Shown here in pieces: positions 2,678 to 48,100 of a DNA stretch of 64,000 nucleotides (position 1 is the first letter of the stretch; the number at the start of each line of letters is the position of its first letter). Under the pieces are notes generated by a model that searched no databases, had not been told where the DNA came from, and saw only the letters and a list, made by a program, of their open reading frames with translations. Location of the stretch: contig DASTXL010000001.1 in assembly GCA_035758565.1 (NCBI GenBank), positions 139,242 through 203,241 on the forward strand, given 5' to 3'. This DNA comes from Candidatus Saccharimonadales bacterium (GTDB lineage Bacteria; Patescibacteriota; Saccharimonadia; Saccharimonadales; UBA10212). The position numbers were made by a program, and so were the translations under genes.

Positions 2678-4093
2678 ATGCCAAATTCTTGGCCAAAAAT
2701 AGCGGATATAGTCGCGTCTGTGCAAAAAGGCGAAACTAAAGCTATCGATCTAATTGAAAAATCACTAACTGCCATTAAAGAAAACGAAGAGTATAAAGCC
2801 ATAATCAGTACACTAGAAGACCGCGCACGCGAACGCGCGCACGAGATAGATCATATGGTAGCCAGCGGCAAAAACCCAGGCAAACTGGCAGGTGTACCAT
2901 TTATTGCCAAGGATAATTTCTTGGTATTCGGCGGTAAAACTACAGCTGCAAGTAATATTCTTAAACCCTTTGAAGCACCATACCAGGCTACGGCGATCAA
3001 TAAACTAGAGGCCGAAGGCGCCATTTGTGTGGCTAAAGCCAACCTGGACGCTTTTGCTCACGGCAGTTCTACCGAAAACAGTGATTTCTTTACCACTTTG
3101 AATCCGCACGATAAAACCCGTGTGCCGGGCGGCAGTAGTGGCGGTTCGGCGGCGGCGGTTGTGCTCGGTATGGCGCCTTTTGCGCTCGGCACCGATACTG
3201 GCGGCTCCATTCGCTTGCCAGCCAGCTTTACCGGCAGCGTTGGCTATAAACCGACCTATGGTTTAGTCAGCCGTAGCGGTGTGATTGCCATGGCTAGCAG
3301 CACAGATGTAATCGGGCCAATTGGGAGTAACGTAGATGACGTGGCGTTGGTGCTTGATGTGATGGCTGGCAAAGACGAGCTAGATAGCACTACGATTGAT
3401 CGCCAAGATACTTATGTCGCCGGGCCAGCTAGTTTCAAGGGCAAAAAAGTTGGCGTTGTCAAAGAGTATTTTGAAGGCCTAGAAGGCGATGTTAAGCGCG
3501 TTGTAGACCAGGCTATTGAAAAGCTTCGTTCCGCAGGCGTCGAGATCAGTGAGATTAGCTTGCCAAGTTTGCCGTTGGCGCTCGCGGTTTATTATATTAT
3601 TTGTCCGGCTGAAGTTTCGTCTAATTTGGCCCGCTACGACGGCCAGCGCTACGGCTATTTTGCCGACAAAGCTAGAGATTTAAACGAAAGTTACGAGCTG
3701 GCGCGCGAAGAGGGTTTTGGCACGGAAGCAAAGCGTCGTATTATGATTGGCGCTTATGTGTTGAGCTCTGGCTATTACGACGCCTATTATAAGAAAGCGC
3801 AAACGGTGCGGACAAAAATTATCAAAGAAATGGATGAGGCGTTCGCGAAATTTGATTTTTTGGTTGGGCCGACAGCACCTATGACTGCTTTTAAAATTGG
3901 CGAAAAAACCGCTGACCCATTGCAAATGTACTTAACTGATATCATGACCGTAGCTGCCAATATTACCGGCAACCCAGCTATCAGCGTGCCGGCCGGCAAG
4001 GTTGATGGTTTGCCGGTTGGTCTGCAGATGATAGCCGACCGCCGTCATGATGCAGAATTATTATCAGCGGCAAAAGGGTTCGAGGAGCTATAG
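2678..4093 (+). CDS. gatA: Asp/Glu-tRNA amidotransferase subunit A
   Basis: Amidase signature GGSSGGSAAAV..GTDTGGSIRLPA. Confidence 0.95.
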   Translation: MPNSWPKIADIVASVQKGETKAIDLIEKSLTAIKENEEYKAIISTLEDRARERAHEIDHMVASGKNPGKLAGVPFIAKDNFLVFGGKTTAASNILKPFEAPYQATAINKLEAEGAICVAKANLDAFAHGSSTENSDFFTTLNPHDKTRVPGGSSGGSAAAVVLGMAPFALGTDTGGSIRLPASFTGSVGYKPTYGLVSRSGVIAMASSTDVIGPIGSNVDDVALVLDVMAGKDELDSTTIDRQDTYVAGPASFKGKKVGVVKEYFEGLEGDVKRVVDQAIEKLRSAGVEISEISLPSLPLALAVYYIICPAEVSSNLARYDGQRYGYFADKARDLNESYELAREEGFGTEAKRRIMIGAYVLSSGYYDAYYKKAQTVRTKIIKEMDEAFAKFDFLVGPTAPMTAFKIGEKTADPLQMYLTDIMTVAANITGNPAISVPAGKVDGLPVGLQMIADRRHDAELLSAAKGFEEL

Positions 4094-4501
4094 ATGACTG
4101 TTATTTTTCTGCTTGGCATAATCGTTTTTGGTGTTTTGGTCCTGATGTTAGTAGCCACGATTGGAAAGCGCCGCTTCGGCCCGTCCGGAGAAAAGTATTT
4201 CCAGGAAAAATGGGTTGAACTTTTAACTCGCGTCAGAACGCCGGAAGGCATGGTATTAGCCGTAATTGACGCGGATAAATTGTTAGACGAAGCCTTACGC
4301 AAAAAACATTACAAAGGCAAAACCACTGGGGAGCGGCTTGTTGCAGCTCAGCGCGACATTAAAGACAACGACTCTGTTTGGTACGCGCATAAATTGCGCA
4401 ATCGCTTGGTACATGAACCGGACGTTAAGCTCAGAAAAAATGAAGCTCAAAATGCATTGGCTGGTTTCCGTGCCTGCCTTAAAGATCTGGGAGTACTTTA
4501 G
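4094..4501 (+). CDS. Membrane-anchored protein with RNxxxH (HEPN-like) motif, unknown function
   Basis: N-terminal TM helix (VIFLLGIIVFGVLVLMLVATI). C-terminal AHKLRNRLVHE matches Rx4H. Abuts the gatA stop and the gatB start with no gaps. Confidence 0.6.
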   Translation: MTVIFLLGIIVFGVLVLMLVATIGKRRFGPSGEKYFQEKWVELLTRVRTPEGMVLAVIDADKLLDEALRKKHYKGKTTGERLVAAQRDIKDNDSVWYAHKLRNRLVHEPDVKLRKNEAQNALAGFRACLKDLGVL

Positions 4502-5929
4502 ATGAGTGATTACTTGCCGACAATCGGAATCGAAACGCACGTTCAGCTAAAGACCAAAACCAAGATGTTTTCGGCTGTGGGCAATGATGCTCGAGACGCG
4601 GCGCCAAATACTTTGATTAGCCACATTGATGTCGGTATGCCTGGCGCTTTGCCGGTTTTGAACGAAAAAGCTTTGGAGCTTGCTTGCCGAGCCGCTTTTG
4701 CACTAAATACTACTCCGCAGAAATTCTCTAAGTTTGAACGCAAGCATTATTTTTATCCGGATTTGCCCAAAGGCTATCAAATTACTCAGTATGAAAACCC
4801 AATTATTATCGGCGGCCATGTAGAATTGCCGGACGGCAAAAAGATCGGCATCACCAGGGCGCACCTGGAAGAAGATGCCGGCAAAAACACTCACCCGGCC
4901 AGTGCTGATTATAGCTTGGTGGATTTGAACCGCGCTGGTACGCCGCTGCTAGAAATTGTCAGCGAGCCGGACATTCATAGTGCCGCTGACGCTAAAGCTT
5001 ACGTACGCGAACTTTATTTACTTATGAAATATGCAGACGTTTCTGATTGCGACCTGTACCTCGGCCACATGCGTTTTGACGTGAATGTCAGCGTTAGCAA
5101 AGATCCCAGCAAACCCGGAATCCGCGCGGAAGTTAAAAACCTGAATAGTTTCCGTAGTGTAGAGGCGGCGATTGAGTACGAAATTAAAAGGCAGACTGAA
5201 CTTTTAGAAAATGGCGAAAAGGTTGTGCAGGAAACCCGCGGCTGGGACGAAGATAAGCAAGTTACAACCAGCCAGCGCAGCAAAGAAGAAGCCGAAGATT
5301 ATCGCTACATGCCCGAACCGGACATCCCCCCAACCGAACTTAGCGATGAATTCATTGAAAATATCAGAAAAGACATGCCCGATCTGCCAAGCTATTACAG
5401 AAAAACGCTGAGCGATATTGGAATTGATAAGAAAGCAACTGAAGATATTGTTGCTATTCCCGACGTAGCTAGAAATGTCGACCTTGTATATCGCTACGAT
5501 GGCAAGTTGAATGCAAAATTCGGCAGACGGATAGCGTTCTTGCTTTTACGCCCACAACCCGAAGAGCCGGACAATACTGACGCAAAAGTCGACATAAGCA
5601 TCAAGAACCTTGTTAAATTATGCCAGATGGCAGAAGACGGACTATTAAGCTCTACGGCCACTAAGGAAATTTTCGATGAGATGCTTATCTCTAAAAATGA
5701 TCCTGAGCTAATTGCAAAAGAAAAGAAACTAATTCAGGTTTCGGATGAAGGGGCGATTGAAGAAATTGTTAAACAAGTCATTGCCGAAAACGAAAAAGCC
5801 GCCAATGATGTTAAGAATGGCGAAATGAAAGCTATCAGCTTTTTGGTCGGCCAGGTCATGGCAAAATCCAAAGGCCAAGCCAATCCGGGTTTAGCTCAGG
5901 CAATAATCAAAAAACAACTGGGGGTATAA
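4502..5929 (+). CDS. gatB: Asp/Glu-tRNA amidotransferase subunit B
   Basis: IGIETHVQL..RKHYFYPDLPKGYQITQ..HLEEDAGK motifs and a C-terminal GatB/YqeY tail. Confidence 0.95.
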   Translation: MSDYLPTIGIETHVQLKTKTKMFSAVGNDARDAAPNTLISHIDVGMPGALPVLNEKALELACRAAFALNTTPQKFSKFERKHYFYPDLPKGYQITQYENPIIIGGHVELPDGKKIGITRAHLEEDAGKNTHPASADYSLVDLNRAGTPLLEIVSEPDIHSAADAKAYVRELYLLMKYADVSDCDLYLGHMRFDVNVSVSKDPSKPGIRAEVKNLNSFRSVEAAIEYEIKRQTELLENGEKVVQETRGWDEDKQVTTSQRSKEEAEDYRYMPEPDIPPTELSDEFIENIRKDMPDLPSYYRKTLSDIGIDKKATEDIVAIPDVARNVDLVYRYDGKLNAKFGRRIAFLLLRPQPEEPDNTDAKVDISIKNLVKLCQMAEDGLLSSTATKEIFDEMLISKNDPELIAKEKKLIQVSDEGAIEEIVKQVIAENEKAANDVKNGEMKAISFLVGQVMAKSKGQANPGLAQAIIKKQLGV

Positions 5930-16521: not shown

Positions 16522-17106
16522 ATGCAAAGTTTAGCTCAGAAAATTAGTGACAAGCACAAGAAAAGCGCCGTAGTGACAATCAAGAGCGGTGACACCGTTC
16601 GCGTTCACCAAAAAATTGTCGAAGGCGGCAAAGAGCGCGTTCAGATTTTTGAAGGCCTAGTAATTCGCGTCAGCCGTACCAATTCCCTAACTAGCACCTT
16701 TACTGTTCGCCGCATTGCCAGCGGCGTAGGGGTTGAAAAGACTTATTTGATTCACTCACCAAATGTTTTGAAAGTAGAAGTTACCAAACGCAGCAAAGTT
16801 CGCCGCAACTACCTGACCTACATGCGCGCCCGCACCGGCAAGAGTGCCCGCTTGACCAGCGTTGATTTTGACCGCCGCGCCGTAAACGATGTTCACGATG
16901 CTGCTACTACCGCCGAAGAAGAGCGTATTGTTCACGAACACACCGAAGAGCACGAACCTCTAGCCGCAGAGGCTAAAGAACAAAAAGCCGAAGCTGAGGC
17001 AGAAGCCAAGGCCGAAGCGCCAAAAACCGAAGCCGAAAAACTAGAAGCCCAACCCCTAGAAAGAGCGGAAGCTAAATCTCCCGCTCAACAGCAAAATAAG
17101 GAATAA
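16522..17106 (+). CDS. rplS: 50S ribosomal protein L19 with C-terminal low-complexity extension of about 75 aa
   Basis: GDTVRVHQKIVEGGKERVQIFEGLVI..RRIASGVGVEKTYLIHSP core, then an EAKAEAEAEAKAEAPK-type tail. Confidence 0.9.
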   Translation: MQSLAQKISDKHKKSAVVTIKSGDTVRVHQKIVEGGKERVQIFEGLVIRVSRTNSLTSTFTVRRIASGVGVEKTYLIHSPNVLKVEVTKRSKVRRNYLTYMRARTGKSARLTSVDFDRRAVNDVHDAATTAEEERIVHEHTEEHEPLAAEAKEQKAEAEAEAKAEAPKTEAEKLEAQPLERAEAKSPAQQQNKE

Positions 17107-17131
17107 GTTTGCTTTTATTACAAAAACATTG

Positions 17132-17160
17132 TTGACAATGTTTATTAATTTTGTTATTAT
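17132..17160 (+). promoter_or_regulatory. Strong sigma70-type promoter
   Basis: TTGACA (17132-17137), a 17-nt spacer, and an extended -10 TGtTATTAT (17152-17160). Confidence 0.65.
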
Positions 17161-17166
17161 ATCGCC

Positions 17167-17760
17167 AACGTCGTGACTTCCGGAGAGCCACGTCTACCCG
17201 GTAGGGTCTAATCTCCGGCGGGTTTGGGAGCCTGATCACCATCAAGGGAGCCAAAACCTGGCCATAACGGAAGATTCCCACTGGCAAGACTTCGGTCTAC
17301 CAGATCTCCGTTCCTGTTAAAGTCGCGAGCTCAGCGCGCAAACATCAGGGTCCTTCGGGATGAGATGCGCCTTCGGGCACTGTCTGAGACGGGTCTTGAG
17401 GAAGACTCGCATTCGCTAGTGCGATATCGAGGGCATCGGCGCGGTGAACCGCAGTCGATGGTCGCACACAGTTCCCGCTGTCCTCTAGTCGTTTTACGGC
17501 TAGGCAGGAACTATTCCTCCTACAAAGCCGGGTTCCACCGAGTGGCGTCGCCTGAGGGCGGCCCGGACGTCCAAGACGTCACTCAACGTGTTCGGGTCGG
17601 TCGGCCTCCAAAGCTGATCGCACAAAAAAGCCGGGGCAAAGGTCCCTCCGGACTCCGCAAGAGAGATCCGGGAAAACCTAGGAGAGGATTGTAGCGACCC
17701 GACGCTGCGAACCTACCTCCCCCCGCTTGGTCTTCGGACCGAGCGGGGCTCTTTTCTTTT
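17167..17760 (+). ncRNA. Unclassified large structured RNA (about 590 nt)
   Basis: Bounded by the promoter above and the terminator at 17721-17760. GC-rich relative to its flanks. Many local stems and four C(UUCG)G tetraloops (17290-17295, 17353-17358, 17371-17376, 17732-17737), plus the stem CATCG..GCGG-tgaa-CCGC..CGATG (17434-17460). The only ORF is an Arg-rich shadow. Confidence 0.6.
17721..17760 (+). terminator. Rho-independent terminator
   Basis: CCCCGCTTGGTC-ttcg-GACCGAGCGGGG (12 bp including one G-U pair) followed by CTCTTTTCTTTT. Confidence 0.8.
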
Positions 17761-17776
17761 AGGCTATAATTCAAAT

Positions 17777-18454
17777 ATGAAAACGGTCGTTATAACTGGT
17801 TCTAGCAGGGGCATTGGCTTGGCTACGGCCCAACTATTTTTAGATAAAGGTTGGCGGGTTATAGGTACTTTTAATAAAACCGCCATTCCGCTTCAACACA
17901 AAAATCTGATTAGAGTTAGACTTGACTTGTCCCAGCCCAAAGATATTGCTGGAACCGCAAAATCTATCACCGAACATTCGTCGCATATTGACGCTTTGAT
18001 AAATAACGCCGGCGTAGCTCTGGACCAAAAAAGCGAAGGCATAGATATAGACGTTATTAGAAAGACTTTTGAGGTTAATTTATTTAACCTTGTTGATTTG
18101 ACTCAGCGACTCGTCCCGTTAATGGCCAAAGGCGCCCATGTCATAAACATAGACTCCAACTATGGAGCTCAATCATTACCAATCGATGATGACACCCATG
18201 TTGGCTACAGATTGTCAAAAGCGGCGCTCAATATGTATACGCGTATCCTAGCCTTCCATCTAAAAGGTCAAGGGGTAATTATTTCGTCTCTGGATCCGGG
18301 CTGGGTAAGGACGGACATGGGCTACGAAGCCGGTGATGATGTGTTCCAGCCAGATAGGGAAGCAGACGAGGTCGCTCAAGACATCTACGATATCGTGCAA
18401 ACGGTGAAAGAATCCGGCTTTTTTTGGCGCTTTGGCCAAAAACGTGAGTGGTAG
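17777..18454 (+). CDS. Short-chain dehydrogenase/reductase
   Basis: VVITGSSRGIGLATA cofactor motif, NNAG, and a YxxxK-type YRLSK. Confidence 0.85.
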   Translation: MKTVVITGSSRGIGLATAQLFLDKGWRVIGTFNKTAIPLQHKNLIRVRLDLSQPKDIAGTAKSITEHSSHIDALINNAGVALDQKSEGIDIDVIRKTFEVNLFNLVDLTQRLVPLMAKGAHVINIDSNYGAQSLPIDDDTHVGYRLSKAALNMYTRILAFHLKGQGVIISSLDPGWVRTDMGYEAGDDVFQPDREADEVAQDIYDIVQTVKESGFFWRFGQKREW

Positions 18455-18460
18455 CGCTAG

Positions 18461-19018
18461 TTAGCTTATTTGTATTTGAGGGGTGTCGATGTCCATCAGA
18501 GCGATGCGTTGCTCGTCTGGGTTGAAGGTCAACTTATTATAAACACTCGGTCGACTTCCGGCCTGATATTCTATAACCTCTGCCTGTGGCACAAAGAGCA
18601 AATCTTCGTCTTGAGCGGCGCTTAAACAAATAGAATCAAATCGGACCAATGATCCTATCGGTTTGGTGCCTGCGCCTACTGTCACCGGCTTATTGTCTGC
18701 CGGATTTAATGTGAAGGATTGATAGTCTATTGGGCTGTCTACTATCAAAAGAGCCTCATCCAGAATGTCGATAGTTAAACTATTGAACATAAGGGGCGCC
18801 TTGGCACCTACCAAACGTGAGTGTTCGGCGATGTCGTCGGCTATTTCTGCCATTTTAGTAACCGCTCTGATATATTTGCCCAAAATTCGATTAGCCTCGA
18901 TTACCTGAACTTCATAAACAGGAAAAGTGTAGTCGTTATCTAAATAAAGCTGAGCGGCTACCGGTTCGGCTTGTCGATCGGCCTGCCGGCGGTCAAATCT
19001 TCTTCTTCGAAAACTCAT
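18461..19018 (-). CDS. Hypothetical protein (186 aa from the internal ATG)
   Basis: The longer ORF (to 19165) would overlap rnhB. The ATG at 19018 gives MSFRRRRFDRRQ... No recognisable motif. Confidence 0.5.
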   Translation of the reverse strand: MSFRRRRFDRRQADRQAEPVAAQLYLDNDYTFPVYEVQVIEANRILGKYIRAVTKMAEIADDIAEHSRLVGAKAPLMFNSLTIDILDEALLIVDSPIDYQSFTLNPADNKPVTVGAGTKPIGSLVRFDSICLSAAQDEDLLFVPQAEVIEYQAGSRPSVYNKLTFNPDEQRIALMDIDTPQIQIS

Positions 19019-19061
19019 TAGCGGTATAATTGTAAATATCAATAGAGCGGGGGACTGTAAA

Positions 19062-19628
19062 ATAATTGGCATTGATGAAGTCGGTAGGGGCTGTTTGGCG
19101 GGGCCGCTTTTAGTGGTTGCCGCCCGGTCAAAAGGCGAATTGCCGCCAGGGCTTAAGGATTCCAAATTATTAACTCGTGCCCAGCGCGAAGCTTTTTATA
19201 AAAACTTAATTGAAGTCTGCGACTTTGGCGAAGGCTGGGTAAGCGCGGCCGAAATTAACAAACTTGGACTGGGCCGGTGCCTGAGGCTGGGAGTGAAGCG
19301 GGCAATTGATGATTTGCAGGTTGAATTAGACGAAGAGATTATGATGGACGGCATCGTCAATTACATTCCCAAAAAATTTATCAACCGTCGGTGCGAAGCT
19401 AAAGCCGATAATAATTATCCAATTGTTAGTGCGGCCAGCATACTGGCCAAAGTCAAACGCGATGATTATATGCGCAAACTAGCTATAAAATATTCCGAAT
19501 ATGGGTTCGAAAGCCACGTCGGCTACGGAACCAAGGCGCATTATTTGGCAATTCAAAAACTTGGCCCGCTTAAATTTGTTCATCGCACCAACTTTGCTCC
19601 GTTTCAGGAATTACCACAGCAGCTATGA
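19062..19628 (+). CDS. rnhB: Ribonuclease HII (start codon apparently non-canonical)
   Basis: The catalytic motif IGIDEVGRGCLAGP is encoded at 19065-19106. That is upstream of the first in-frame ATG/GTG/TTG (19095). GGGGGA at 19049-19054 could act as an SD for ATA 19062 or ATT 19065. Confidence 0.8.
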   Translation: MIGIDEVGRGCLAGPLLVVAARSKGELPPGLKDSKLLTRAQREAFYKNLIEVCDFGEGWVSAAEINKLGLGRCLRLGVKRAIDDLQVELDEEIMMDGIVNYIPKKFINRRCEAKADNNYPIVSAASILAKVKRDDYMRKLAIKYSEYGFESHVGYGTKAHYLAIQKLGPLKFVHRTNFAPFQELPQQL

Positions 19629-39256: not shown

Positions 39257-39341
39257 GGGGATGTGGTGAAATTGGTATACACGCGTGCCTTAGGAGCACG
39301 TGCCGCGAGGCGTGAAGGTTCAAGTCCTTTCATCCCCACCA
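39257..39341 (+). tRNA. tRNA-Leu (anticodon UAG), CCA encoded
   Basis: Acceptor stem GGGGATG/CATCCCC, 3-bp D stem, anticodon stem CGTGC/GCACG with loop cTTAGga. Long variable arm, T arm GAAGG-ttcaagt-CCTTT, and discriminator A followed by CCA. Confidence 0.9.
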
Positions 39342-45162: not shown

Positions 45163-48100
45163 ATGGCAAAATTAGTGGCAACAACTGCAAAACGCACGTA
45201 CTTTACAAAATCAGACGACATTATCAACCCACCAAACCTGGTCGACCACCAGAACAAATCGTTCCAGTGGTTCGTAGAAGAGGGCCTTGGTGAGTTGCTA
45301 GCCGAAATCAGCCCGATTGACGATTACACCGGCGGAAAACTCAGCATTAAGTTCAAGGATTATCACTTTGAGGATCCAAAGATTACCGAGACTGAGGCCC
45401 GTGAGAATAACGTCAGTTTTGAGGCGCCTTTGAAGGCTAACGTCGAACTGACCAATAAAGTTACTGGCGAAGTAAAAGAACAAGAGATTTATCTTGGTGA
45501 CTATCCGTGGATGACATCCCGCGGTACTTTTGTAATTAACGGAGCTGAGCGCGTAGTAGTATCTCAGCTGATCCGCTCAAGCGGTGTCTTCTTTACTGCC
45601 GAACCGCATGGTGGTACCAGTCTGTACGGCGCCAAAGTCATTCCAGTTCGCGGTGCTTGGCTAGAATTTGAAACGGCCGCTAACGGCGCTCTTTATGTAA
45701 AGATCGACCGTAAGCGCAAAATTGCCGTTACTACCTTGCTTAAGGCTCTTGGCATGGACGAAACTCAGATTAAAGAAGCCTTTGCCCACGTTGACCAAGG
45801 CTCGGTTAATCATATTCAGGCTACATTAGATAAAGACCCAGCCCGCTCTCAAAGCGAAGCTTTGATTGAGGTTTACCGCCGCTTGCGCCCAGGCGATCTA
45901 GCTACTGTCGATAATGCCCGTAGCTTGCTAGAAAACATGTTCTACAACTTCAAGCGCTTTGACTTTGGTCGCGTTGGCCGCTACAAGATCAACAAGCGCC
46001 TGGATCTGGACGTTCCAAATACTACCGACAATCGGGTTATGCGCATTGAGGATCTCATTGCCATCGTTGCTGAGCTTATTCGCTTGAACAATACTCAAGA
46101 GCCGGCTGACGAAATCGACTCACTGGCCAATCGCCGCGTCAAATTAGTCGGCGAGCTGGTTCAACGCCAATTCCGCATTGGACTGCTGCGCATGGAGCGC
46201 AACGCCAAAGACCGCATGAGTATGAGCGAAATCGAGACCGTAACTCCGGCTCAATTGATCAACGCCCGCCCGGTTGTGGCGGCTGTGCGCGAATTCTTCG
46301 CCTCCTCCCAGCTTTCGCAGTTCATGGATCAAATCAACCCACTTTCCGAACTGGCTCACAAGCGCCGTCTTTCCTCAATGGGTCCTGGCGGTCTTAGCCG
46401 CGAGCGCGCCGGTTTCGAAGTTCGTGACGCTCACGCTACCCACTATGGCCGCATTTGTCCGGTAGAAACCCCGGAAGGTGCCAACATTGGTTTGGTACTT
46501 AACCTGGCCGGTTTTGCCCGCATTAACGAATACGGCTTTGTTGAGACACCTTACCGTAAGGTAATCAACGCAGTAACCCCTAAGGAAGCTGCCGGTCATA
46601 TCGCCCGCGCTGATCTGGTTGACGAAAAAGGCAAAGTTATTGTTAAAGCTGGCGCCGTAATTACCGACGCCGCCGCTAAAAAACTGGCTACAGTTAAATC
46701 GGTCGCTACTTGGCCGGTTAAAGCTAAAGTTACCGACAAAGTGGTTTATCTTGATGCCGCCGAAGAAGAACAGGCTGTCATCGCTGGTGCTGGTGTAGAA
46801 ATAGACGACAAAGGCTACTTCACAGAAGCCCGCGTCAGCGTCCGTAACCGCTTGGAGCCAGGTGAAGTCGAAGCCGACGAAGTTACCCACATGGACTCCA
46901 GCCTTGCTCAAACTATCGGCTCAAGCGCCGGTTTGATTCCGTTTATCGAAAAGAACTACGTGCTTCGTTCGCTGATGGGCTCTAACCAACAGCGTCAAGC
47001 CGTACCGCTGATCAAGCCGCAATCGCCAATTGTTGGTACTGGTATGGAGTCGATTGTTGCCCACAACACTGGCCAGCTGATCGTTGCCGAAGAAGACGGC
47101 GAAGTATCAAAAGCTACTGCCGACGAAGTCGTCGTTAAGTATAAGAGCGGTCGCAGCGCTAAGTATGAACCTGTTCACTTTGCCCGCTCTAACGAAGGCA
47201 GCTCTATCAATCAAACTGTCGTAGTCAACAGCGGTGATAAGGTTAAAGCCGGCCAACCGCTGGTTGAAGGCATGAGTATCGAAGGCGGCGAATTAGCTCT
47301 TGGTAAAGACCTTTTGACTGCTTTCATGCCATGGGGCGGCTACAACTTCGAAGACGCTATCATTTTAAGCCGCCGCTTAGTCCAGGACGATACGTTAACG
47401 TCAGTTCACATTGTTGACTACATGACCGAAGTTCGCGAGACCAAGCTTGGCCCAGAAATTGTTACACGCGATATTCCAAATGTATCCGAAGAATCACTGC
47501 GCCACCTAGACGAAGACGGAATTGTGCGCATTGGTGCCGAAGTTCACCCCGGCGACATCTTGGTTGGTAAAATTACGCCAAAAGGCGAGCAAGAACTTTC
47601 TAGCGAAGAGCGCTTACTGCGTGCCATCTTCGGCGAAAAAGCCAAAGAAGTCCGCGATACCTCTCAGCGCATGAGCACCGGCCGTCACGGCAAAGTCGTT
47701 GGCGTCAAGGTATTTAGCCGCGCCAACGGTCACGAGCTAAAAGCCGGTGTGATTATGCAAATTCAGGTGTTTGTTGCCCAAATGCGCAAGATTAGTGTTG
47801 GCGACAAGCTTGGTGGCCGCCACGGCAACAAGGGCGTCATTGCCCGCATTTTGCCGGTCGAAGACATGCCATTTACCGAAGACGGCACTCCAATCGATAT
47901 CGTTTTGAACCCACTGGGCGTTCCAAGCCGCATGAACATCGGCCAGCTGTTCGAGACGCACCTTGGCATGGCCGCCCGCGCCTTAGGCTTTAAGGTTGCT
48001 ACACCGCCATTTAACGGTGTTCCTATAGAAAAAATTCAGGATCTATTAAAAGAAGCTGGCTTGCCGCAAGACGGAAAACAGCAACTTTACGACGGCCGCA

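Follow-up and report, generated by a model that had tools for sequence, protein, structure and literature searches.

What is encoded in the GC-rich segment of about 600 nucleotides (nt) that lies directly 3′ of rplS, the gene of ribosomal protein L19, in a 64,000-nt stretch of DNA from a Candidatus Saccharimonadales bacterium (contig DASTXL010000001.1; this whole stretch is called the window below)? A first-pass annotation, made from the letters of the window, had read it as an unassigned structured RNA, about 590 nt in length, that has its own promoter and terminator. The layout of the locus, two homologues and a series of compensatory base changes bear this proposal out, and in our judgement the element is very probably a genuine, novel structured RNA gene acting in trans. 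There is an equally good chance that it stands for a large non-coding RNA (ncRNA) family that is new and previously unclassified, with a length of ~595 nt here and 660–725 nt in the homologues. The best-supported view of the selection acting on it is that the fold, and not a reading frame or an antisense target, is what is being kept.

By its flanking L19 protein, which is identical to NCBI HEU5004627.1 from a third-party annotation (TPA) metagenome-assembled genome (MAG), the host, from soil or groundwater, was placed in Saccharimonadales (Patescibacteria, or Candidate Phyla Radiation, CPR), so that the earlier guess of Patescibacteria was right. The gene order in the window is T2SSE ATPase, a small minus-strand open reading frame (ORF), rplS, the RNA element, an SDR gene, a minus-strand ORF, rnhB and UPF0102.

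The predicted transcription unit and its homologues

The features that define the unit in the window are as follows.

16522–17106: rplS (L19), with its stop at 17106
17132–17160, plus strand: promoter with a −35 box TTGACA (17132–37), a 17-nt spacer and an extended −10 box TGtTATTAT (17152–60), scoring 11/12
17167–17760, plus strand: predicted transcript of ~595 nt, its 5′ end placed from the −10 box and its 3′ end from the terminator
17721–17760, plus strand: intrinsic terminator with a T-run, which also ends read-through from rplS
17777–18454: SDR gene, directly 3′ of the RNA

In a scan of both strands of the whole window the promoter ranked first, as had been claimed; 11/12 was also reached by two other sites, neither of which combines the TGn extension with a 17-nt spacing. 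The terminator stem (17721–17748) comprises 12 pairs, nine of them G–C, closed by a TTCG loop and followed by CTCTTTTCTTTT, in agreement with the 12-bp UUCG-capped structure described before. Likewise, the four C(UUCG)G hairpins that had been listed are matched by four occurrences of CTTCGG within 600 nt (17290, 17353, 17371 and 17732), compared to 0.125 expected from base composition, and the GC content (0.59 in the element vs 0.49 in the rest of the window) agrees with the description of the segment as GC-rich. Since no terminator stands between the rplS stop codon and the RNA promoter, transcripts of rplS also run into the element. The unit would fit the generic class in which a sigma-70-type promoter and an intrinsic terminator enclose an ORF-free conserved structure.

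Homologues were obtained by searching a large protein collection with L19 and then inspecting the contigs of 12 relatives (78–88% identity). Two further RNAs were found at the syntenic site, and the family as used here consists of three distinct members in five datasets, the sequence of the second homologue being identical in three of them.

L085: Logan SRR22868775, positions 4650–5374, ~725 nt, nhmmer E 1.5e-22
L123 (= L124, L125): ENA ERZ27256510, JGI 3300032893 and Logan SRR8879131, positions 3552–4212, ~660 nt, nhmmer E 1.5e-12

Both homologues occupy the same rplS–rnhB spacer, and their promoters and terminators are laid out as in the window. Their promoters read TTGACG-17-TGcTATTCT (L085) and TTGACG-17-TGcTATTAT (L123), with spacer sequences that differ between members, and both RNAs also end in a long hairpin terminator with a T-run. 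In all three members the RNA gene is directly 3′ of rplS and has a GC content of ~60%, compared to ~48% in the surrounding loci; the next gene 3′ is SDR in the window and rnhB in L085 and L123. A search of the window and 90 Saccharibacteria loci (746 kb) with a covariance model (CM) built on the core (R1, 222 positions) gave 196–216 bits for the three members and 11.8 bits for the next match. This latter match (window 46324–46415, minus strand, E 0.14) falls within a coding region and was judged to be due to chance.

Eleven further L19 lineages from the clade have no copy of the RNA in their rplS–rnhB spacer, and nhmmer and blastn searches with the RNA against 80 GTDB Saccharibacteria rplS loci gave no match; only three GC-rich ORF-free gaps occur in these 80 loci, and none of them fits the covariance model of the RNA. 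At RNA-less sites, what comes next, 17–60 nt past rplS, is either a small terminator with rnhB or a minus-strand ORF of unrelated sequence. Carriers and RNA-less lineages are interleaved in the L19 tree and also by downstream synteny, in that the window has a Peptidase_M1 arrangement in common with RNA-less loci, and L085 a Peptidase_M29 arrangement in common with the RNA-less L088. Because the same spacer lacks the RNA in most close relatives, the RNA is an accessory and dispensable gene, not a housekeeping one. As far as the loci were sampled, the family is restricted to one clade of Saccharimonadales. No second copy was present in the window or in the loci examined, and blastn in distant mode found no match to the RNA in phage and plasmid collections. 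Four patterns run against IMG/VR (back-translated ORF109, an ORF described below, an 18-mer, a 16-mer and the family signature TCGCRCAC-N5-8-GCTGTCCTCT-N16-34-TTCCTCC) returned only 21 chance matches of the 16-mer, and a metagenome scan with the 19-mer CAGGGTCCTTCGGGATGAG, a probe that was too strict in that its block is not conserved in L123, gave six chance matches, whose similarity to the RNA went no further.

Secondary structure of the 5′ domain, the core and the 3′ part

Comparison of the three members has shown that the 5′ 360 nt keep one predicted secondary-structure architecture by way of many compensatory substitutions. The folding z-score of the window RNA was −2.84 on the plus strand, with none of 100 shuffles folding as well, and −1.05 on the minus strand, and the scores of L085 and L123 were −8.97 and −7.41, respectively. 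The elements of the fold, all on the plus strand and in window coordinates, are listed from 5′ to 3′.

17180–17218: H1, CCGGAGA/TCTCCGG around a hairpin; 5′-most domain, least conserved in sequence
17219–17234: H3, hairpin with conserved loop UUGGGW; the stem covaries
17246–17315: three-way junction H4/H4a/H4b; covariation in the hand-made and MAFFT alignments
17246–49/17312–15: H4, closing helix; both sides changed in three of four aligned pairs (hand alignment)
17250–62: H4a, loop AAA(U)CC; three of four aligned pairs changed on both sides (hand alignment)
17267–17311: H4b, conserved 5′-side bulge (C)UCCCR and UUCG/UGCG cap; 8 of 11 pairs double-changed (hand alignment)
17324–17338: Hc1, CGCG/CGCG hairpin with a 7-nt loop; stem invariant and outside the reach of covariation
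17343–17367: Hc2, hairpin with conserved asymmetric internal loop AGG/RA and UUCG cap; covariation
17369–17378: Hc3, GCC-UUCG-GGC hairpin; a 29-nt hairpin in L123
17390–17409: HcE, hairpin with conserved purine-rich loop UGAGGAA; two double-changed pairs in L123
17419–24/17462–67: Hc4, GUGCGA/UCGCAC; encloses the junction UAUCGAGGG (17425–33) and Hc5
17434–60: Hc5, hairpin with a C–G to G–C change
17471–78/17504–11: Hx; encloses the invariant UGUCCUCU (17479–86) and Hy
17487–17501: Hy, hairpin; three pairs double-changed (hand alignment)
17514–17532: invariant single strands UUCCUCC (17514–20) and CCGGG (17528–32), end of the conserved core
17540–17584: Hz, 10-bp helix (17540–49/17575–84) with an inner hairpin and conserved CCCGGNGUYCCAA; common to L123 only
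17585–17720: variable hairpin-rich 3′ region, unalignable among the three members

The stems change in sequence from member to member while their pairing is kept. The H3 stem, for instance, occurs as CGGGU/GCCUG, AGGAGC/GCUCCU and UCAGGGC/GCCCUGA, the outer stem of Hc2 as CAUC/GAUG in the window, UAUC/GAUA in L085 and GUGC/GCAC in L123, and Hx as GUUCCCGC/GCAGGAAC, GACCUGC/GUAGGUC and GAGUGUGC/GUGCAUUC. Both sides are changed in five of six Hc2 pairs in the MAFFT alignment (four of five in the hand alignment) and in four of eight Hx pairs in the hand alignment, Hx and Hy being partly recovered by RNAalifold as well; in Hc4, a double change from U–A to C–G turns GUGCGA/UCGCAC into GCGCGA/UCGCGC in L123. 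At the position of H1, the closing helix has the analogues GAUCUGU/ACAGAUC and CCGGG/CCUGG in L085 and L123, and the central domain of the homologues includes, between Hc3 and HcE, a variable hairpin without counterpart in the window. H1, H3 and the H4/H4a/H4b junction make up the 5′ domain, and the central domain comprises Hc1, Hc2, Hc3, HcE, Hc4/Hc5 and Hx/Hy. The loops, bulges and junctions that are kept read UUGGGW, AAAUCC, CUCCCR, AGG/RA, GAGGAA, GAGGG, UGUCCUCU, UUCCUCC and CCGGG.

Most of the hairpins named in the first-pass annotation recur in this architecture. Those at 17281–17303 (with its extension, 17267–17311) and 17434–17460 and the CCGGAGA..TCTCCGG stem are kept in the homologues, and so are the inner AGTCG..CGGCT pairs (17487–17501) of the proposed CTAGTCG..CGGCTAG stem. 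The local hairpin TCGCA..TGCGA, on the other hand, found no support in the homologues, and GTGCGA (17419–24) pairs with TCGCAC (17462–67) instead.

When RNAalifold was applied to plain MAFFT alignments, it recovered the helices independently, predicting 59 core pairs, of which 16 are changed on both sides, and, for the 5′ domain, 25 pairs with 11 such changes. Counting pairs gave 93.1% of cells paired and 16 double-changed pairs for the core, compared to 5.7 ± 1.9 in shuffles (0 of 500 reached 16) and 1–4 in slid controls, and 84.7% of cells paired and 12 double-changed pairs for the 5′ domain, compared to 5.8 ± 1.7 in shuffles (0 of 500) and 0–1 in slid controls. For both regions together, pairing was kept with both bases changed in 28 of the 84 predicted pairs. 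The fold is also strand-specific in its energy: alifold values were −51.3 forward vs −40.8 for the reverse complement in the core, and −18.4 vs −13.8 in the 5′ domain, many G–U pairs of the forward fold becoming A–C on the opposite strand.

Toward the 3′ end the similarity fades. All 10 pairs of Hz are formed in the window and in L123, two of them double-changed, and the region differs in L085. The last 150–300 nt of the three RNAs could not be aligned, and the global-alignment identities of this region, being inflated by gap-friendly scoring, were not used; the last third of the RNA was shown to be a variable array of stable hairpins.

In all three members, invariant single strands are complementary to one another, giving four candidate tertiary contacts.

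H3 loop UGGG(A) with the H4b bulge (U)CCCA/G: by complementarity
HcE loop GAGGAA with UUCCUC: by complementarity
GAGGG at the Hc4/Hc5 junction with UCCUC of UGUCCUCU: by complementarity
H4a loop with the segment after CCGGG: by complementarity, with a correlated change among members

The variants of the last contact are AAAUCC/GGAUUU in L123, AUCC/GGGU in L085 and AACC/GGUU in the window. These contacts suggest that the core may be pseudoknotted and compact. Two further ideas were dropped: the internal loop of Hc2 does not fit the kink-turn consensus, and palindromic loops, considered as dimerisation sites, are not fixed in position and are compatible with chance.

Known RNA families, coding potential and rival explanations

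The 4227 models of Rfam 15 were run at the gathering score and at E ≤ 10, with matches listed down to ~10 bits. At the gathering level the 64 kb contained tRNA-Leu at 39257 only, which was also the sole find of ARAGORN, with no transfer-messenger RNA (tmRNA). This gene (39257–39341, anticodon TAG, with a long variable arm) is the only tRNA of the window. At E ≤ 10 the window RNA gave nothing but noise, the best being a 24.8-bit match of an alphaproteobacterial small RNA model over the 3′ end including the terminator, and the same was true of L085 and L123. No Rfam 15 family thus matches any of the three copies at this threshold, and the earlier view that the RNA is probably undescribed stands.

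Could it nevertheless be a housekeeping RNA, namely RNase P RNA, tmRNA, signal recognition particle (SRP) RNA or 6S RNA, that has diverged so far that Rfam misses it? Its size and strong promoter would suit an abundant RNA, and CPR are known for diverged RNase P RNAs and for introns in structured RNA genes. According to Lui et al. (2021, PMC8172020), 10 of 35 complete CPR genomes have RNase P RNAs that fall short of the Rfam thresholds, some with large helix extensions, and such diverged forms came to light only when the threshold was lowered as far as 5 bits; group I introns are reported from tRNA and tmRNA genes of Patescibacteria (PMC13011429). However, none of the three members gave a CM match at E ≤ 10 to RNase P RNA (RF00010/RF00011), tmRNA (RF00023 and relatives), SRP RNA, 6S RNA or group I/II introns (RF00028, RF00029, RF02001 etc.). 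A motif search of the three members, with one mismatch allowed for fixed-sequence motifs, confirmed the absence of hallmarks that had been reported for the window: neither the RNase P P4 motifs GGAAAGUCC and ACAGAA..CCGGCUUA (except for an irrelevant CGGGCUUA inside a 5′ hairpin stem of L123) nor a tmRNA T-loop, the AGCA/GGAA motif of SRP domain IV or a group II intron domain 5 (D5) was present. In addition, the covariation-supported helices follow neither the P1–P4 layout nor that of a tRNA-like domain, and a gene that is missing from the spacer in 11 relatives interleaved with carriers, and from the 80 GTDB loci, hardly behaves as a retained essential single-copy gene such as that of RNase P. 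A diverged RNase P RNA was rejected because of the missing P4 motifs, the lack of a sub-threshold match down to ~10 bits, the different helix layout and the patchy syntenic locus, and we regard any diverged housekeeping RNA as very improbable. Two look-alikes were discarded: a minus-strand RNase P RNA built on GAACCCGGCUU and GGACGUCCGGGC, in which the motifs are 20 nt apart, the minus-strand fold is shuffle-like and neither strand gives a CM match, and a reading of the P2 hairpin found in L085 and L123 as group II D5, against which speak a bulge on the wrong side, an unsuitable length and the lack of conservation in the window.

A second group of explanations denies the element a trans-acting role for the host. 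It might be a cis-acting element, either a long 3′ untranslated region belonging to rplS or else a riboswitch-like leader or attenuator whose terminator controls the gene downstream; rplS transcripts do read into the RNA with no terminator between, and in L085 and L123 the terminator stands just upstream of rnhB. Yet the RNA has a conserved near-consensus promoter of its own, most relatives have rplS and rnhB without it, and a multi-domain fold of 600–725 nt far exceeds known leaders. Nor did any riboswitch aptamer or ribosomal-protein leader model match on the RNA strand, the sole leader-type match being a 16-bit L20_leader on the opposite strand over the end of rplS. Cis-regulation is unlikely because the downstream gene varies (SDR or rnhB), each such gene has its own TATAAT box 5–10 nt before the start codon, as at empty sites, and most relatives do without the RNA; we give it a small chance. 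About as small is the chance that the RNA is what remains of a mobile or selfish element, or its non-coding part (for example a degenerate intron, a guide RNA or retroelement that has lost its protein gene, or an island inserted at a hot spot), with a stable fold that no longer does anything for the host. Its patchiness among close relatives, its position in a spacer that accepts other insertions and its GC content ~11 points above the flanks would agree with such an origin, but in all three carriers it occupies one and the same site in a single orientation, without flanking repeats, neither the window nor the loci contain another copy, and the phage, plasmid and IMG/VR collections hold no match. 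No integrase, transposase, reverse transcriptase (RT) or nuclease gene lies nearby, a promoter and a terminator, not exons, mark the two ends of the element, no RT or homing-endonuclease ORF is present, and for HEARO, IscB-TnpB omega RNA, retron msr-msd and tracrRNA there was neither an effector gene in the flanks of the three loci nor a CM match, as was the case for the intron models. The compensatory changes and invariant loops, kept across lineages whose L19 proteins are 81–85% identical, point instead to ongoing purifying selection on the fold.

The last rival, a protein-coding gene or decayed pseudogene, has been refuted so far and retains scarcely any probability. Its basis is ORF109 and the extension of rnhB by gene callers to 316 aa over the homologous region in L123.

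17365–17694, plus strand: ORF109, 109 aa, ATG start

ORF109 has no relative among 5.8 billion proteins and no Pfam domain, is not called in the source contig and is not kept in L085 or L123, each plus-strand frame of every member containing 3–9 stops, so that its earlier dismissal as a shadow ORF proved right. Similarity among the members lies at the level of nucleotides and structure; on translation it is weak, and to the same degree in each of the six frames, and the core contains indels of 1, 2, 10–12 and 16 nt, not multiples of three. In L123 (3833–4783; also L124 and L125) rnhB was over-called to 316 aa, compared to the normal ~188 aa, because an open frame crosses the 3′ half of the RNA; a protein search with the extension found no relatives, and the extension is an annotation artefact that hides the RNA.

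Several points weigh against reading the element as a novel trans-acting RNA gene with a selected fold. The transcript and both of its ends are deduced from sequence, and the folding z-score of the window RNA (−2.84) is modest. With three members only, the covariation numbers are indicative rather than a formal test and weak in absolute terms, and related sequences without structure can also beat every shuffle in the pair count. The hand-made loop-anchored alignment, with 71 pairs, 32 double-changed and 2 mismatches, partly pairs each sequence's own hairpins, so that some of its covariation arises by construction. The candidate pseudoknots rest on invariant sequences, beyond covariation, and several of them are mutually exclusive. 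No consistent protein gene occurs in the flanks of the three loci, and no target was identified. None of rnpB, ssrA and ffs was seen in the 64-kb window, which favours a diverged housekeeping RNA. Finally, absence was scored at the spacer, and the RNA may sit at other sites in RNA-less relatives.

The surroundings of the RNA showed some features of their own. The rplS–rnhB spacer is an insertion hot spot that, depending on the lineage, is empty or holds the RNA, SDR (window only) or unrelated minus-strand ORFs (spacers compared: window 17107–19094, L009 4523–5040, L087 3582–4064, L088 3029–3559, L128 756–1247 and L001 4597–5109). The minus-strand ORF of the window is 234 aa long in its mechanical version (18461–19165), which overlaps the start of rnhB, and 185 aa in the gene-caller version (18461–19018), which fits better and has no Pfam domain; the latter is 61% identical to the ORF of L128, those of L087 and L001 are 24% identical to each other, and those of L088 and L009 are unrelated to the other spacer ORFs. 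The gene after each terminator has a TATAAT-like box 5–10 nt before its start and no Shine-Dalgarno sequence (window 17767–17779, L085 5377–5393, L123 4210–4226 and the empty sites in L083 and L126), which suggests leaderless or near-leaderless mRNAs with the −10 box right behind the preceding T-run. In this clade L19 measures 191–197 aa in total and ends in a C-terminal tail, ~70 aa long, with abundant Ala, Glu and Lys. At 640–1610 the window has another GC-rich block (~0.58) with three tandem small minus-strand ORFs, each preceded by a strong Shine-Dalgarno sequence AAGGAGGTGAA (plus strand TTCACCTCCTT near 1000, 1360 and 1585), and these ORFs might encode small membrane proteins, perhaps as part of a foreign island.

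A possible folded particle and the known large RNAs

If the element is a trans-acting RNA gene, how might it work? The invariant purine- and pyrimidine-rich single strands and the loop–bulge pair UGGG:CCCA would form pseudoknots, which would lock the 5′ and central domains into a compact tertiary fold. The RNA might then act in trans as a folded particle, be it as a scaffold for proteins, as an RNA that assembles with itself or as a ribozyme, much like OLE, ROOL or GOLLD, and would not act by antisense pairing, by coding or as the leader of a downstream gene; the variable 3′ hairpins would serve mainly stability and termination. That the RNA is a compact pseudoknotted particle with a scaffold, assembly or ribozyme function is a tentative proposal, which we consider possible but doubtful. 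Still less likely, though worth stating, is that the three RNAs found a new class, one of large (600–725 nt), multi-pseudoknotted RNAs specific to Saccharibacteria/CPR and carried as an accessory gene, with a conserved 360-nt core that is catalytic or self-assembling, as a ribozyme or an RNA-only particle.

Bacterial ncRNAs above 500 nt with intricate conserved folds are very rare, the main examples, besides rRNA, being RNase P RNA, tmRNA, group II introns, OLE, GOLLD and ROOL, and to our knowledge almost every such large RNA has proved to be a ribozyme, a ribonucleoprotein machine or an unexpected RNA assembly. The literature was searched for large or structured ncRNAs of Saccharibacteria and CPR and yielded nothing of relevance, and we know of no ncRNA above 500 nt with a conserved fold that has been described as specific to Patescibacteria/CPR. 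The tiny genomes of CPR are thought to retain little that is dispensable, and the locus poses the question of what an accessory RNA of 600 nt does in an episymbiont. A new class here would enlarge the catalogue of large RNA architectures, and the RNA would make a compact, GC-rich and well-behaved target for cryo-electron microscopy (cryo-EM) or structure prediction. At present such RNAs go unannotated or are mistaken for N-terminal extensions of neighbouring genes, as with rnhB in L123.

The likeness to OLE, ROOL and GOLLD that the first-pass annotation had drawn from the size class holds for size and style but not for membership, since no CM match to OLE (ornate, large, extremophilic; RF01071), ROOL (RF03087) or GOLLD (RF01998) was found in the three members. 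RNase P RNA is likewise large, and it is pseudoknotted and strongly expressed, as the new RNA may be; its CPR forms can escape Rfam thresholds and can carry helix extensions. The new RNA differs from it in lacking the P4 core sequences and any sub-threshold match down to ~10 bits, in its helix layout and in not being conserved at the locus in close relatives. With OLE it has in common a length of ~600 nt, a stand-alone gene, a GC-rich multi-domain conserved fold, a restricted phylogenetic range, dispensability and a function that is not obvious from context. OLE, however, is an RNA of Firmicutes with an extremophilic and anaerobic way of life, where it is linked to oapA/B/C genes, whereas the new RNA belongs to Saccharimonadales, has as neighbours T2SSE ATPase, L19, SDR, RNase HII and UPF0102 and no oapA, oapB or oapC, and matches OLE in neither sequence nor structure. 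ROOL and GOLLD typically reside in prophages or near tRNA genes; the new RNA is flanked by rplS and rnhB, with no phage genes in the flanks and the nearest tRNA 21 kb away, and matches nothing in the phage collections or IMG/VR. ROOL and GOLLD reportedly form RNA-only homo-oligomeric cages (Kretsch et al., Nature 2025, PMC12286853). The new RNA resembles them in its size class (580–800 nt), its hairpin-rich ornate architecture, its patchy occurrence among close relatives and the lack of an associated protein. Should the less likely proposal of a founding class be true, ultra-small episymbiotic bacteria would possess an RNA machine of their own, unrelated to RNase P, OLE, ROOL and GOLLD.

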